A stretch of DNA of 64,000 nucleotides from Acidobacteriota bacterium. Lineage in GTDB: Bacteria; Acidobacteriota; Vicinamibacteria; Vicinamibacterales; UBA8438. Positions 6,472 through 58,056 of this stretch are shown piece after piece. The notes beneath the pieces are model-generated. The model had not been told where the DNA came from. It made no database searches and saw only the letters and a list, made by a program, of their open reading frames with translations. The stretch's first letter is position 1, and each line of letters opens with the position of its first letter. Location: contig PAUN01000021.1 of the NCBI GenBank assembly GCA_002712885.1, positions 45,804 through 109,803 of the forward strand, in the 5' to 3' direction. The position numbers and the translations under genes are program-made.

Positions 6472-6486
6472 GGACACTGGCCAGGA

Positions 6487-6577
6487 GGTTTTCGGGCGAA
6501 GCGTTTGTCTGACAAGGCGCGAGGAGATAGCAGCCAGGCGGGCTGTGACCGACAAGCTTCGCCGCCAGACCCACACC
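6487..6577 (-). repeat. A-type palindromic intergenic repeat, degenerate copy A1 (tandem with A2)
   Basis: GGTTTTCGGGCGAAGCGTTTGTCTGACAAGGCGCGAGGAG..CAGCCAGGCGGGCTGTGACCGAC.. aligns to A2/A4, but the distal arm has decayed. Confidence 0.7.
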
Positions 6578-6589
6578 ACTCGCAGAACC

Positions 6590-6694
6590 GGTTTCCTGGC
6601 GAGGCGTTCGTCTGGCAAGGCGCGACGAGGGAGCATGCAGGCGGCATGTGACCGAGGAAGCAACGCCGCCAGACAGACGCCTCACCAGGAAACC
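6590..6694 (-). repeat. A-type ~105-bp palindromic intergenic repeat, full copy A2
   Basis: GGTTTCCTGGCGAGGCGTTCGTCTGGC...GCCAGACAGACGCCTCACCAGGAAACC form terminal inverted arms of about 27 bp, with inner hairpin CATGC-AGGCG-GCATG. The last base is shared with the TAG stop of the 6694-7581 gene. Confidence 0.85.
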
Positions 6695-7581
6695 TAGCGC
6701 CAGGGACGCTCGACGACGCGGTCCAGCGGCCGGCGCTCGAGCCGGAACGCACGACGCTCGCGCAGGTCGAACCGGTCGCCGGCTCCGAGGAAATAGAATC
6801 GTCCGCCGGAATCGAGCTGATGCGCGTGGTCGTAGATCGCCACATAACTGCGTCCGATCACCTCGAATTCATCGCCGCGCACCACGATCGCCGTGTTTTC
6901 GTCGAGGCCGATCCCCAGCAGTTCGGGGTGCGCTTCGATCACACTGAGCAGGTCGAACTGCCGATTCCGCCGAAGCAGATGCTGATCGATGGCTGTGTCT
7001 CGCAGGAACCCAAACCCCACCACGTGGTCGCCCATCATGATGGTGTTGGTGGCCGAGTCGCCGCGCGCGAGATATGAACCCAGAATGGTCGCCCCGGCCG
7101 ATGATCCACCAACCACGCCTCCGCGACGCAGGACATCGCGGAGCGCCTCGTGCACCTCGGTGTCGAGATACGCGTCGGCCAGACGCCACTGCCGCCCGCC
7201 AGGAAACCAGACCCCACGCGCACGACGCAGCGGGGACACGAAGGCTTCGCTGTCGGCCACGTCGCGGTCGGTCGTGTGCAACACGACAAGGTCCGTGGCA
7301 CCCGCGTCGCGAAACGCCTGCAACCCCGGGTACGACTGATCGTAGGTCTCGGCACCGCCCGCGGTCGGTATCACGACAATCGGTGAGTCGGGTCCACCGG
7401 CCAGCCGCACAAACCGTTCGAGAATGGCGGGGTCGCGCATCGCGCCCCCGACGACCACCAGGGCCCCGCGGGGCGGACCGACGACCGGACCGCCAGTCTG
7501 CGTGCTCACGCTGGCGGTCACCGACAGGCACACGCCCAGAACGGCCACCATCCACACACTGCTGTGCGCAATCTTGCTCAC
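6694..7581 (-). CDS. cyanophycinase-like serine peptidase (family S51), secreted
   Basis: VWFPGGRQWRL (GGdQ-like) and GGVVGGSSAGATILG (nucleophile Ser motif) match cyanophycinase/S51. Start placed at GTG 7581, with GGGAG Shine-Dalgarno 7 nt upstream, giving signal peptide VSKIAHSSVWMVAVLGVCLSVTASV. Confidence 0.75.
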   Translation of the reverse strand: MSKIAHSSVWMVAVLGVCLSVTASVSTQTGGPVVGPPRGALVVVGGAMRDPAILERFVRLAGGPDSPIVVIPTAGGAETYDQSYPGLQAFRDAGATDLVVLHTTDRDVADSEAFVSPLRRARGVWFPGGRQWRLADAYLDTEVHEALRDVLRRGGVVGGSSAGATILGSYLARGDSATNTIMMGDHVVGFGFLRDTAIDQHLLRRNRQFDLLSVIEAHPELLGIGLDENTAIVVRGDEFEVIGRSYVAIYDHAHQLDSGGRFYFLGAGDRFDLRERRAFRLERRPLDRVVERPWR

Positions 7582-7697
7582 TTTTCGCTCCCTTTTCGTA
7601 GGACGAATTGTACATCCCACACCCGGACGCGGGCTGGCCATCCAAATCCGCTACAATTGAGCAGCCCCTACCCCAGCGCCAAAACTGGGACTACCTT

Positions 7698-10237: not shown

Positions 10238-10342
10238 GGTTTTCTGACGAGGCGTCCGTCTGGCGGCGTTGCTTCGTCGGTCACAGCCCACCTGGCTGCT
10301 CCCTCCTCACGCCTGACCAGACAGACGTCTCGTCAGAAAACC
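10238..10342 (+). repeat. A-type ~105-bp palindromic intergenic repeat, full copy A3 (opposite genomic orientation to A2/A4)
   Basis: GGTTTTCTGACGAGGCGTCCGTCTGGCGGCGTTGCTTCGTCGGTCACAGCCCACCTGGCTG...CCAGACAGACGTCTCGTCAGAAAACC. It starts at the base immediately after the TAA stop at 10235-10237. Confidence 0.85.
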
Positions 10343-29290: not shown

Positions 29291-29394
29291 GTTTTCCTGG
29301 CGAGGCGTTCGTCTGGCAAAGCGCGAGGAGGGAGCAGACAGGCGGTCTGTGACCGACGAAGCAACGCCGCCAGACGGACGCCTCGCCAGGAAAA

Positions 29395-29395
<1 letters not shown>
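29291..29395 (-). repeat. A-type ~105-bp palindromic intergenic repeat, full copy A4
   Basis: GTTTTCCTGGCGAGGCGTTCGTCTGGC...GCCAGACGGACGCCTCGCCAGGAAAAC, with inner hairpin CAGAC-AGGCG-GTCTG. The last base is shared with the TAG stop of ettA. Confidence 0.85.
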
Positions 29396-52203: not shown

Positions 52204-52234
52204 GGCCGCGTGGGATTCGGGGCGCAGCCCCGTC
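52204..52234 (-). repeat. B-type module, partial copy B3
   Basis: GGCCGCGTGGGATTCGGGGCGCAGCCCCGTC matches the core of B1. Confidence 0.65.
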
Positions 52235-52240
52235 AAAGGA

Positions 52241-52302
52241 ATACCCAGGCGGGATATGACCGACGCAGCAACGCCGCCACATGGACGCCCCGCCTGGAGA
52301 CC
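52241..52302 (-). repeat. A-type repeat, stop-proximal half (A6, diverged)
   Basis: ATACCCAGGCGGGATATGACCGACGCAGCAACGCCGCCACATGGACGCCCCGCCTGGAGACC aligns with the inner hairpin plus stop-proximal arm of A4. It ends in the TAG of the 52302-53117 gene. Confidence 0.7.
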
Positions 52303-55857: not shown

Positions 55858-58056
55858 CTACCGCGCGAGCGGATCAGGCCGCAGCTGGAAGTGGACGATC
55901 TTGCTCTTCGTGCCCTTCCCGCCTTCAGTGTGCCAAATGTAGTTGGAGCCGTAGTTGGCCCACAGCCCGCGTCCTTTCCAACCGGTGGACGCATCATCGA
56001 TCCGACCGTCGAGACCGCGCGAATAGAACGCCTGCGGATACGGCACCCGCAGCACGACCCATTCACCACTCTCCGGGTCCAGCGCGAGTAGCGAGTCAGA
56101 CGTCGACCCGTTGGCGACGGGGATGTTCTCGCCCATCCCGAGGGTGTTGTACTGATCGACCCAGCTGTAATAGTGAAAGTCGGCGCCGACGTCGCCCTCT
56201 ACCCCGGCCATCTTCGGCCCCGGCATCGGATACAGCGTCCACCCTTCGGCGCAGTGCTGTCCGGTAGCCGTGGGGCCATTGGTCACGGCGCACTTACTGC
56301 GATCGAAGCTGGCCATGTGACTGCTACCGGAGAGCGCGGCCCAAATAACGCCGTTGCGGTCCACATCGATGCCACGCGGCGAGAAGCCGGTTGTGGCCGG
56401 GTCGACACTCGAGTTTTCGATCGACGGTGGCTGGTACATCTCCGCGATACACGTCTCGGGCGGGTTGTCTCCACGATCGAGCCGCACGATCGCCCCCGGG
56501 AATGGCCTGGTCCGGCTGATCCACGCGGAGCCGTCAGTCGGATGCGCGATGATGCCATACCCGAATCCGGACACGCGCGTGTCCAGCGACGCGTCCGATT
56601 CCTCGGCCCTTGGCTCGTTCCACGGTTTCGTGATCTTCCCATCGCCGTTGGTATCGAGCACGGTGGGACACCATCCCTGAGCGAACTGCTCGTCACCGGT
56701 GCTGTCGTAGACGGCCGTATTCAGCCAGCCGACGACGTTCCCGTCACCGCTAAACCAGAGGGTGTCGTCCTCGTCCTCGCCGAACTGGAGGTGGTGCGTG
56801 CCGTAGCAAGTGTCCACGAGCACGAACTTTTCGCCGTCCGGGTCATAGTACGAAGCGTGCCGGCCCGTGCGCCCCACGGAATAATACTGAGCGTAGGGAT
56901 TGTCCGACCCCTCTCTGCACCAGTCGGGGTTCTGGAACTGACGCACCGTCGATGTCATCCAGACCCGGCCCTCGTGATCCATCATCGGGTTGTGCGGATC
57001 GGACCGCTCGTTGGCCCCGACGCCCCACAGTTCCTGGTCTCCCCAGTAGTAGGAGGCCGTTTGCACGTCCGGGAACCGAGTCGGCATCGTCTCGGGATCC
57101 GGTCGTACCGGAATGGTCAGCTCGACGGCCGAGTTCGCCACCGGGTCCACCATCGTGATGGTGCCATGCCCGGCCGACACCCCGTAGACCGGCCCGTAGC
57201 CGTTCATCTCCGGATTCCGCTTGTCGGTCACAATCTCGTCATGGATGAAGGACGTGTCCTGCCCCCAGTCCCACAATGTGACGACGACGTTCTGCTCGAG
57301 ACCATCGGGACGCGGTGGTGCCTCGGGGATGGCGCCGGAGGCAATGCGGTCGGTCCAGTCGGCGAACATCTCAAGCGCCGGCTCGCGACCGAACCGGTTC
57401 ATCGCGCCGCTCATCTGGTTGCCGCGCTGCCCGGTCTGCACCCGGTGATCCCAGGCAGCCACGGTTGAGTCGAACTCGTCCCGGTGCTGCACGACCCGCG
57501 TGGCGGTGTTACCAAGCTGATGACACAGCTGGCAGCCCTGCTTCATATTGTCGACCCACTGCGACTGGCTGCGCATGGCCGGATTGATACCGTTGCCGTC
57601 GTTCCCAGTGCCCGGGAATTCACTCGAGGCCGGGGGTTCAATCAGTGAATACCAATAGTTGCCGGGGTAGTACTGCGCGGCGTCACGCGGCGTCGGTGCA
57701 ATCGCGGCGGTCAAGGCCACGTCCTCCTGCCCTGTCGACAGCGTGACCTTCTCGGAATCGACGAGGCCGTAGCCTCGTACCCAGACGTCGTAGGACGCCT
57801 CGGGCATCTGCGGCAACACGAAACGGCCACTGTCATCGGTGACGACGATCTTGGCGAACTTCGTCTCGAGCTCTTCGGTCTCGGCGATGACCCAAACCCC
57901 GGCCTCGGGACCATTGTCACCGCTCACGGTGCCGGCAATGACGCCGTCGGGCATACCGCTCTGACGGGCGGTCGCGCCAACGCTCCAGATGGCCAATCCA
58001 GCCACCAGCAGTGCCACGAGCGTGAGTGAAAAACGTGGGCGGAATGCGTTACGCAT
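55858..58056 (-). CDS. secreted CarboxypepD_reg domain + single CxxCH haem-c motif + beta-propeller-like protein
   Basis: Signal/anchor, GVIAGTVSGDNGPEAGVWV...DDSGRFVLPQMPEASYDVWV (CarboxypepD_reg), then NMKQGCQLCHQLGN (CxxCH), then about 500 aa rich in W/G/D repeats. Start at ATG 58056 or 58095. Confidence 0.65.
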   Translation of the reverse strand: MRNAFRPRFSLTLVALLVAGLAIWSVGATARQSGMPDGVIAGTVSGDNGPEAGVWVIAETEELETKFAKIVVTDDSGRFVLPQMPEASYDVWVRGYGLVDSEKVTLSTGQEDVALTAAIAPTPRDAAQYYPGNYWYSLIEPPASSEFPGTGNDGNGINPAMRSQSQWVDNMKQGCQLCHQLGNTATRVVQHRDEFDSTVAAWDHRVQTGQRGNQMSGAMNRFGREPALEMFADWTDRIASGAIPEAPPRPDGLEQNVVVTLWDWGQDTSFIHDEIVTDKRNPEMNGYGPVYGVSAGHGTITMVDPVANSAVELTIPVRPDPETMPTRFPDVQTASYYWGDQELWGVGANERSDPHNPMMDHEGRVWMTSTVRQFQNPDWCREGSDNPYAQYYSVGRTGRHASYYDPDGEKFVLVDTCYGTHHLQFGEDEDDTLWFSGDGNVVGWLNTAVYDSTGDEQFAQGWCPTVLDTNGDGKITKPWNEPRAEESDASLDTRVSGFGYGIIAHPTDGSAWISRTRPFPGAIVRLDRGDNPPETCIAEMYQPPSIENSSVDPATTGFSPRGIDVDRNGVIWAALSGSSHMASFDRSKCAVTNGPTATGQHCAEGWTLYPMPGPKMAGVEGDVGADFHYYSWVDQYNTLGMGENIPVANGSTSDSLLALDPESGEWVVLRVPYPQAFYSRGLDGRIDDASTGWKGRGLWANYGSNYIWHTEGGKGTKSKIVHFQLRPDPLAR

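Follow-up and report, generated by a model that had tools for sequence, protein, structure and literature searches.

Why do the copies of a short non-coding repeat differ from one another in matched pairs of nucleotides? The question is raised by positions 6590 to 6694 of a 64,000-nt stretch of DNA (referred to here as the window) from a marine MAG of the Vicinamibacterales (G000; 3.83 Mb, 64.8% G+C, 82 contigs). The initial annotation of this locus had noticed that the inner hairpin of an 'A-type' repeat keeps the loop AGGYG while its stem changes on both sides at once, and had attributed this to selection or a mode of copying that works on the secondary structure and not on the primary sequence.

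The copy at 6590-6694 (plus strand), called A2, is a full A-type repeat of 105 nt. Its purine-rich plus strand is predicted to fold into a rod-like hairpin, with a score of 118.7 bits against the covariance model and, as RNA, an energy of -68.1 kcal/mol (z = -8.2 compared with shuffles). The outer stem consists of an inverted repeat (I1; 27 nt, 89% complementary) whose 5' arm (element positions 1-27) lies at 6590-6616 and pairs with the 3' arm (positions 79-105) at 6668-6694. The inner hairpin, GCATGC-AGGCG-GCATGT (positions 44-60; 6633-6649), includes the covarying pairs 47:57 and 48:56 and a conserved G44.U60 wobble. It is framed by purine-rich internal loops, GA-C-GA-GG-GA in the 5' half (positions 35-43; 6624-6632) and GA-CC-GA-G-GAA-GC in the 3' half (positions 61-72; 6650-6661), which contribute C37 and G67, respectively, to an isolated covarying pair. 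Directly upstream is A1 (6487-6589, plus strand; 82% identity, D1; 59.5 bits), a degenerate tandem copy that retains the core and the inner hairpin (CAGCC-AGGCG-GGCTG) and in which CCCACACCACTCGCAGAACC stands in place of the 3' outer arm. The window also contains two other full copies, A3 (10238-10342, minus strand; CAGCC-AGGTG-GGCTG; 118.8 bits), which belongs to the CTGACGAG/CTCGTCAG subfamily, and A4 (29291-29395, plus strand; CAGAC-AGGCG-GTCTG; 123.5 bits), together with a weak partial relic (52204-52302, plus strand; 20.2 bits, E = 0.005). All four hairpins quoted in the initial annotation are thus present, and they do differ in paired fashion around a constant loop. Its description of the outer stem needs correction: the contrast between CTGACGAG/CTCGTCAG in A3 and CTGGCGAG/CTCGCCAG in A4 is real, but the 3' arm of A2 is CTCACCAG, with one C.A mismatch at 11:96, and A1 is without a 3' outer arm.

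A1 and A2 occupy the 222-nt gap between two convergent ORFs. One of these, a peptidase-S51-like ORF (6694-7641), ends in a TAG stop codon (6694-6696, minus strand) that shares one base with the end of A2, and the final C of A2 together with this TAG gives CTAG. The junction CCCACACC.CTCGCAGAACC between the truncated and the full copy occurs at four separate loci, in the window at 6570-6589 and in the 5' flanks of three further copies of the same genome (C43:31745-31849, C39:1627-1732 and C36:46903-47007), so that the tandem dimer seems to have spread as a unit.

The family is large. An iterated nhmmer search of the MAG returned 197 hits, 98 of full length and about 100 partial. A DNA search found the A-type family in 29 of 41 relatives, and the covariance model gave at least 75 to 115 matches in each of five complete relatives (150 candidates scored per genome). 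With the same model the core was found in 17 of 151 genomes sampled across the Acidobacteriota, 10 of them outside the Vicinamibacterales, and the sequences fetched from these phylum-wide matches carry the same core. No Rfam family reaches its gathering score in the window; at E <= 10 only generic microRNA-precursor hairpins appear, far below threshold. Some near-identical stretches, including the flanks, occur on two contigs each (C25:~56750-57220 and C50:~82040-82510; C7:7250-7355 and C60:18839-18944; C40:8167-8283 and C14:960-1076), which points to redundant contigs or to a mixture of strains in the MAG (reported contamination, 5.6%).

A consensus fold was derived on an alignment of 70 copies. 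The outer stem (27 bp; alignment columns 1-27 with 79-106) is followed by a short GGC/GCC helix (30-34 with 71-78) with an AAC bulge, by three tandem G.A/A.G internal loops (35-36/68-70, 38-39/65-66 and 42-43/61-62) separated from each other by the pairs 37:67, 40:64 and 41:63, and by a terminal hairpin of 6 bp (44-49 with 55-60) carrying the loop AGGYG. RNAalifold independently gives the outer stem, 37:67, 40:64 and the inner hairpin. In the mid-region, where the columns are invariant, it pairs 31-32 with 71-72 whereas the minimum-free-energy fold pairs 30-34 with 71-78. One copy from a relative in another family (L113) has Watson-Crick or wobble pairs in place of all three G.A loops and so forms a continuous 20-bp helix, and in a sister copy only the first loop has been turned into pairs. 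This replacement of loop by helix shows that nucleotides of the two loop halves lie opposite one another, which the rod model demands. A hammerhead ribozyme was considered because CUGACGAG in the arm recalls the hammerhead core; it was rejected since this segment pairs with CUCGUCAG and Rfam gives no hit.

Across 50 copies from the host genome, 93.2% of the stem cells of the alignment are paired, so that mismatched stems are far rarer than matched ones. Two-sided changes are found in 24 of the 41 pairs, compared with 10.8 +/- 1.9 in shuffles (none of 500 reaches 24), and there are 130 doubly changed cells where shuffles give 39; if the partner is slid by one to three columns, no more than 13 pairs and 29 cells are doubly changed. 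When all 5565 column pairs are ranked by APC-corrected mutual information, the top four are all structural (37:67, 47:57, 48:56 and 10:97).

Such matched changes could in principle arise with no base pairing at all. The arms would then be terminal inverted repeats recognised by the same transposase, and their changes would match through co-evolution with a protein at the ends or through subfamily linkage. Columns 6, 10, 19, 20, 97 and 101 do co-vary and define two large subfamilies, and the outer positions quoted in the initial annotation (CTGACGAG versus CTGGCGAG) fall in the terminal 14 nt, which are the element ends in the host genome. Because subfamily linkage had to be accounted for, we built an R-scape-like null of our own, in which ancestral states are assigned by the Fitch procedure on a FastTree tree and the substitutions of each branch are re-dealt to random columns (200 replicates). 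Tested on the given structure, 37:67, 47:57, 48:56 and 10:97 remain significant in the host genome at E < 0.05 (6:101 reaches 0.08), and no non-structural pair is significant. In a wider set, enlarged by 30 copies drawn from five complete genomes that represent four other genera, eight pairs are significant among all 5460 column pairs (2:104, 5:101, 6:100, 23:83, 37:67, 47:57, 48:56 and 49:55); on the given structure there are ten, with none outside it, and the summed covariation score is 1001 compared with 6 +/- 45 in the null. Covariation therefore exceeds phylogenetic expectation in both sets, and together with the pairing rate this bears out the original proposal that selection or copying acts on the secondary structure.

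The same results leave little room for a reading without pairing. The tree-aware null absorbs subfamily linkage and yet flags no non-structural pair, the strongest covariation is internal (37:67, 47:57, 48:56 and 49:55) and far from the ends, and in relatives the 'outer stem' lies internal to extra arms and still covaries. In addition, all seven subfamily-defining differences retain Watson-Crick or wobble pairing. We consider this explanation highly improbable overall and, for the inner hairpin, largely refuted. The relatives taken alone have 92.8% of cells paired and double changes in 29 of the 41 pairs, figures obtained with an alignment by the covariance model, which biases the gapped outer stem towards pairing; for the inner hairpin and 37:67 the alignment is unambiguous. 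Across genomes the inner stem exists in at least 14 fully complementary versions, including CAGCC/GGCTG, CATGC/GCATG, CAGAC/GTCTG, CAGGC/GCCTG, CAACC/GGTTG, CATAT/ATATG, CACAT/ATGTG, CATAC/GTATG, CAGAT/ATCTG, CAAAT/ATTTG and TTTGG/CCAAA (one hairpin-segment extraction was poorly anchored and serves only as a qualitative list of stems).

Primary sequence is nevertheless not free throughout. While the stems vary and keep their pairing, the internal loops are conserved in sequence too, a nuance that the initial annotation missed. The major-allele frequency is 0.94 in internal-loop columns compared with 0.75-0.77 in the stems, and no part of the element is more conserved than the purine-rich loops with their three tandem G.A motifs. 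The G44.U60 wobble is retained beside every variant stem; neither it, nor the consensus G.U wobbles, nor the three G.A loops have ever been 'corrected' across the 14 or more compensated stem versions.

These conserved irregularities bear on a second explanation, in which the matched changes are produced by copying and structure is not selected: template switching between the arms, or mismatch correction in a hairpin or cruciform, would give a matched double change in a single step. Arm-to-arm copying by template switching is documented elsewhere (PMC8794818). Parsimony on the tree of host-genome copies assigns to terminal branches 173 pair breaks, 83 single pair-preserving changes, 26 double compensated changes and 13 restorations, and to internal branches 33, 26, 12 and 14, respectively. 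The 26 double changes on terminal branches are what copying would predict, as is the number of double hits to the same pair (42, of which 38 are canonical, compared with about 12 expected of any kind). Some single copies (C11:50172-50276 and C23:72630-72734) even carry private compensated pairs, three of them within 6-7 nt, as template switching would produce. Stepwise selection explains such copies awkwardly, although 'private' changes may only reflect old lineages that were not sampled; no close kin of the copy at C11:50172-50276 was found in five same-genus genomes. On the other hand, copying from arm to arm would erase G44.U60, the consensus G.U pairs (17:89, 18:89, 19:88 and 20:87) and the tandem G.A loops, whereas these non-Watson-Crick features persist in nearly all copies, phylum-wide, beside stems that are much altered. 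The pair 37:67 flips from G:C to C:G between conserved non-complementary purines, and it covaries alone between mismatched neighbours. Copying alone therefore cannot account for the pattern, because wobbles and loops that it would remove are kept everywhere. It may supply mutations; as an explanation in its own right we regard it as quite unlikely.

Nor does copying predict the asymmetry between the two strands. The purine-rich strand folds more stably than its complement in 92 of 98 copies, with mean energies of -63.4 and -54.5 kcal/mol using RNA parameters and -32.2 and -28.5 using DNA parameters, and the common mismatches on this strand are all G.U. In the wide alignment, 12 pairs have four or more G.T cells and two have four or more A.C cells (p = 0.013); the totals are 179 and 56 cells. 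This excess of wobbles over A.C mismatches indicates that one of the two strands folds. A cruciform on double-stranded DNA would favour neither strand, which argues that it is a single strand that is under selection.

If the folded strand were an RNA, it might have a host or cis-regulatory role at each locus, for example by stabilising a 3' UTR, providing a processing site or acting as an sRNA that binds a protein, and be kept by selection on the host. The loop sequences, conserved across the phylum while the stems around them covary, and the G.U type of the asymmetry, better tolerated in RNA, are both in line with this, and the related repeats bcr1, ERIC and Correia are transcribed (PMC3184786). 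The positions of the copies also fit. Genes were called with a home-made caller (3266 genes, 88% coding), and about 90% of copies follow the end of at least one gene. A convergent gene is present on the 3' side of the element in 71 of the 98 copies, and in most of these its stop codon overlaps (by 1 nt) or abuts the last base of the element. The element therefore marks many gene ends. CTAG, which occurs genome-wide at 0.18 of its expected frequency, is nevertheless found at the 3' junction in 47 of the 98 copies; 36 copies have a 5' extension of about 29 nt, which in 17 begins with CTAG. According to the same crude gene calls, the whole genome has 1397 TAG, 1436 TGA and 387 TAA stop codons, and TAG being about as common as TGA is unusual at 65% G+C. 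This may be due in part to the repeat, whose insertions regenerate TAG.

Orientation tells a different story with regard to such a role. In the host genome, transcription of the gene whose TAG adjoins the element yields the complement of the strand that folds well. Between co-directional gene pairs the purine-rich strand is sense in 19 cases and antisense in 27 (p = 0.30), and in relatives it is sense in nine and antisense in eight with respect to the neighbouring genes; in neither is there a bias. The same is true of replication: with the origin assumed at dnaA, 60 of 133 copies from four complete genomes are co-oriented with the fork and 73 are anti-oriented (p = 0.30). Orientation thus looks random relative to both transcription and replication, the processes that expose single strands. 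This is hard to reconcile with a strand-specific fold and is the main unexplained mismatch in our results. A role at each locus is also at odds with the differences between species, since at the stop codon orthologous to that of the window locus (6472-6694) the closest relative has half an A-type element accompanied by further repeat modules, another relative has the copy as part of a 770-nt mosaic, and a more distant one lacks it and has about 80 nt without repeats. On terminal branches the majority of stem changes disrupt pairs, at a roughly neutral rate, and no Rfam family matches. The central core does show fewer private substitutions than expected (51 compared with 69.8, P = 0.012), a deficit that could be an artefact of ascertainment because the copies were found by similarity. 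On balance a host function maintained locus by locus appears rather doubtful.

The repeat itself resembles a MITE. It is non-coding and dispersed; it is 105 nt long in the MAG and about 170 nt in relatives, where the hairpin is extended by a further complementary arm of about 30 nt on each side. These longer elements are bounded by CTAG...CTAG and, with the same arms in another lineage, by TTAA...TTAA. The outer arm CAGCCCGTGGTG…, for example, has TTAA flanks in one lineage (L106, L107 and L113, in G183 and G125) and CTAG flanks in another (L048-L071, in G008 and G024), which implies that the preferred 4-bp context around a TA target has shifted. Transposases of the IS630/Tc1-mariner group insert at TA, which is duplicated on insertion. 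The flanks in relatives fit such a duplication. In the host genome, one side of the copies has nothing beyond the core, and in the one filled/empty pair examined (flanks about 80% identical between species) no clean TA duplication is visible. At this site, directly after a TAG stop codon, G001 and G004, both of the same genus, carry the repeat, whereas contig 25 of the host MAG is without it. Insertion polymorphism is also seen at the window locus, which was scored as occupied in three relatives and empty in a fourth.

Several observations connect the repeat to DDE_3 (IS630-family) transposases. Copies of these ISs in relatives start at CTAG, and an arm of the MITE in one genome (G038) shares 26 of 30 nucleotides, the first 13 among them, with the end of an IS630-family IS in another (G021). 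DDE_3 genes are present in 18 of 28 relatives that bear the repeat and in 2 of 12 that lack it (Fisher p = 0.014; being related, these genomes are not independent samples). No DDE_3/IS630-type transposase gene was found in the MAG itself or in three complete carriers of the repeat, the IS630 type defined in a same-genus genome has ends unrelated to the repeat, and no IS was found to match the arms of the G008 and G024 repeats. A search for an IS with ends like those of the host-genome repeat, among the IS types defined in G001, G008, G021 and G024, gave none. The core is also not an internal piece of a full-length IS630: the model has no hit inside 20 IS loci, and its single hit there is an adjacent MITE. 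Other mechanisms were discarded. The REP/RAYT route can be set aside because Y1 (PF01797) is absent from the MAG and from two of the five complete repeat-rich carriers; the form is also not that of a REP or REPIN (palindromes of 20-40 bp headed by GTAG or CGTC), the element being 105-170 nt long with CTAG or TTAA as its tetranucleotide. Single-strand elements of the IS200/IS605 type (PATEs) are not supported, given the lack of a replication-strand bias described above. We conclude that the A-type repeat is a MITE and that the transposases which move it are most likely of the IS630/Tc1-mariner type, inserting at TA in CTAG or TTAA; the transposase family is inferred from the flanks and ends.

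The repeat is also seen in composite and variant forms. A second repeat module (…CCCCACTCCGCGTCCGCGGGGCGCGCA..TGCGCGCCTAGGC…) often adjoins A-type copies (5' flanks of C73:16467-16571, C37:11954-12059, C61:16756-16861 and C75:27405-27512 in the host genome; also L033 and L041), which suggests composite arrays resembling BIMEs. In a subset of copies the 3' half of the inner hairpin is replaced by an extra G+C-rich hairpin (GCCCCGCCCGG..GGGCGGGG), and another subset has an alternative 3' module (ACCCCGCTGAGTCAATGCCGCGACGTCCGCCC). These variants (C63:23105-23230, C11:67857-67982, C12:44957-45084, C21:14276-14401, C5:5937-6063 and others in the host genome) indicate that the family is modular. The window locus (6472-6694) and the orthologous gaps (L033:1755-2045 and L041:1235-2110) form a hotspot of repeat turnover, in which the only shared part is the 3' arm at the stop codon.

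The two kinds of branch in the tree suggest when selection would act. Pair-preserving or pair-restoring changes make up 60% of those on internal branches and 41% of those on terminal branches (p = 0.002), and single substitutions on terminal branches preserve pairing in 33% of cases, roughly the neutral expectation. It would follow that copies decay after insertion while the lineages that spread keep the fold. Pairing that is kept through matched double mutations points to selection on the folded shape, and the explanation that we favour, to which we assign a probability of about 0.6, is selection on the single-strand fold of the purine-rich strand of a non-autonomous mobile repeat. The fold itself, its covariation, the strand asymmetry, the conservation of the core across the phylum and the differences in presence and absence between genomes are what the data show; selection at the stage of propagation is what we infer from them. 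According to this explanation, the central 105 nt or so of a non-coding MITE would fold as a single strand, either RNA or ssDNA, into a rod. Its stems would be free to change provided that both sides change together or by way of G.U, and its internal loops would be held in sequence by selection. Such selection would bear mainly on the lineages that go on to spread, with inserted copies decaying almost neutrally.

It is possible, and we put this forward tentatively, that the core (about 75 nt) is an ancient phylum-wide RNA or ssDNA module, either catalytic or binding a conserved acidobacterial protein, that has repeatedly been picked up as cargo by different IS630-type terminal repeats. Such a module would comprise the conserved purine-rich loops, with their three tandem G.A pairs, between helices that covary freely. 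If so, the mobile element would be carrying a functional nucleic-acid motif for which the databases have no entry. If the core binds a protein or acts as an RNA, hundreds of sites per genome would share this function; if it serves transposition, short MITEs of the DDE type would depend on a folded single strand. Whichever applies, the family provides a clean and statistically supported case of structure-preserving evolution in a bacterial interspersed repeat from a poorly studied phylum. Its conservation is unusual for a MITE, with an interior conserved phylum-wide and ends that are swapped between lineages. In practical terms, it repeatedly gives rise to broken contigs and to intergenic mosaics in acidobacterial MAGs.

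Comparable repeats are known from other bacteria. ERIC (or IRU) of enterobacteria is an imperfect palindrome of about 100-130 bp that forms a long hairpin and occurs in intergenic, often transcribed 3' regions, in both orientations and at a TA target; its sequence is conserved across a wide taxon while its locations differ between species. The A-type repeat resembles ERIC in being an imperfect palindrome with a long hairpin, intergenic, in both orientations and conserved across a wide taxon at differing locations, a resemblance in kind only. It differs in its host phylum, in its three tandem G.A loops, in the lineage-specific outer arms (with CTAG or TTAA) placed around the same core and in reaching up to several hundred copies per genome. 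ERIC is named MITEEc1_IS630 and catalogued as an IS630-type MITE (PMC11602168). In ISfinder, MITEEc1 is entered as related to IS630. In the Bacillus cereus group, bcr1 (about 155 bp, at non-conserved locations) shows compensatory base-pair changes that keep a double-stranded structure (Delihas 2011, PMC3184786), and compensatory changes also preserve the hairpin of IS-derived stem-loops in Borrelia (PMC3184786). The A-type repeat shares with bcr1 the nature of an interspersed repeat with structure-keeping changes; bcr1, however, has 5-bp direct repeats, a cruciform with two independent stem-loops and known transcription, whereas the A-type repeat forms a single rod with TA-type flanks.

Correia elements are MITEs that target TA. 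Those of Neisseria (NEMIS) have long inverted repeats, which form RNA hairpins when co-transcribed (PMC3184786). Here the likeness lies in a MITE with TA-type flanks and long inverted repeats, and the difference in the part that matters: Correia elements function through their paired terminal repeats (RNase III cleavage) and an IHF site, whereas the A-type repeat is most conserved in its internal loops and not at its ends. The GTAG-tagged REPs and REPINs associated with RAYT are high-copy extragenic palindromes found by gene ends (Di Nocera et al. 2013, PMC3733652). Like them, the A-type repeat has a tetranucleotide tag at one end (C/T-TAG) and stems that vary with compensation; unlike the A-type repeat, REPs are 20-40 bp long and depend on Y1 (RAYT), the Y1_Tnp domain being missing from the carriers mentioned above. 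Because compensation in bcr1 and Borrelia and the status of ERIC as an IS630-type MITE are already documented, the A-type family joins a known kind of repeat. The family itself is new, and what distinguishes it is its phylum-wide core, its internal loops, which are more conserved than its ends, and the differing terminal arms around that core.
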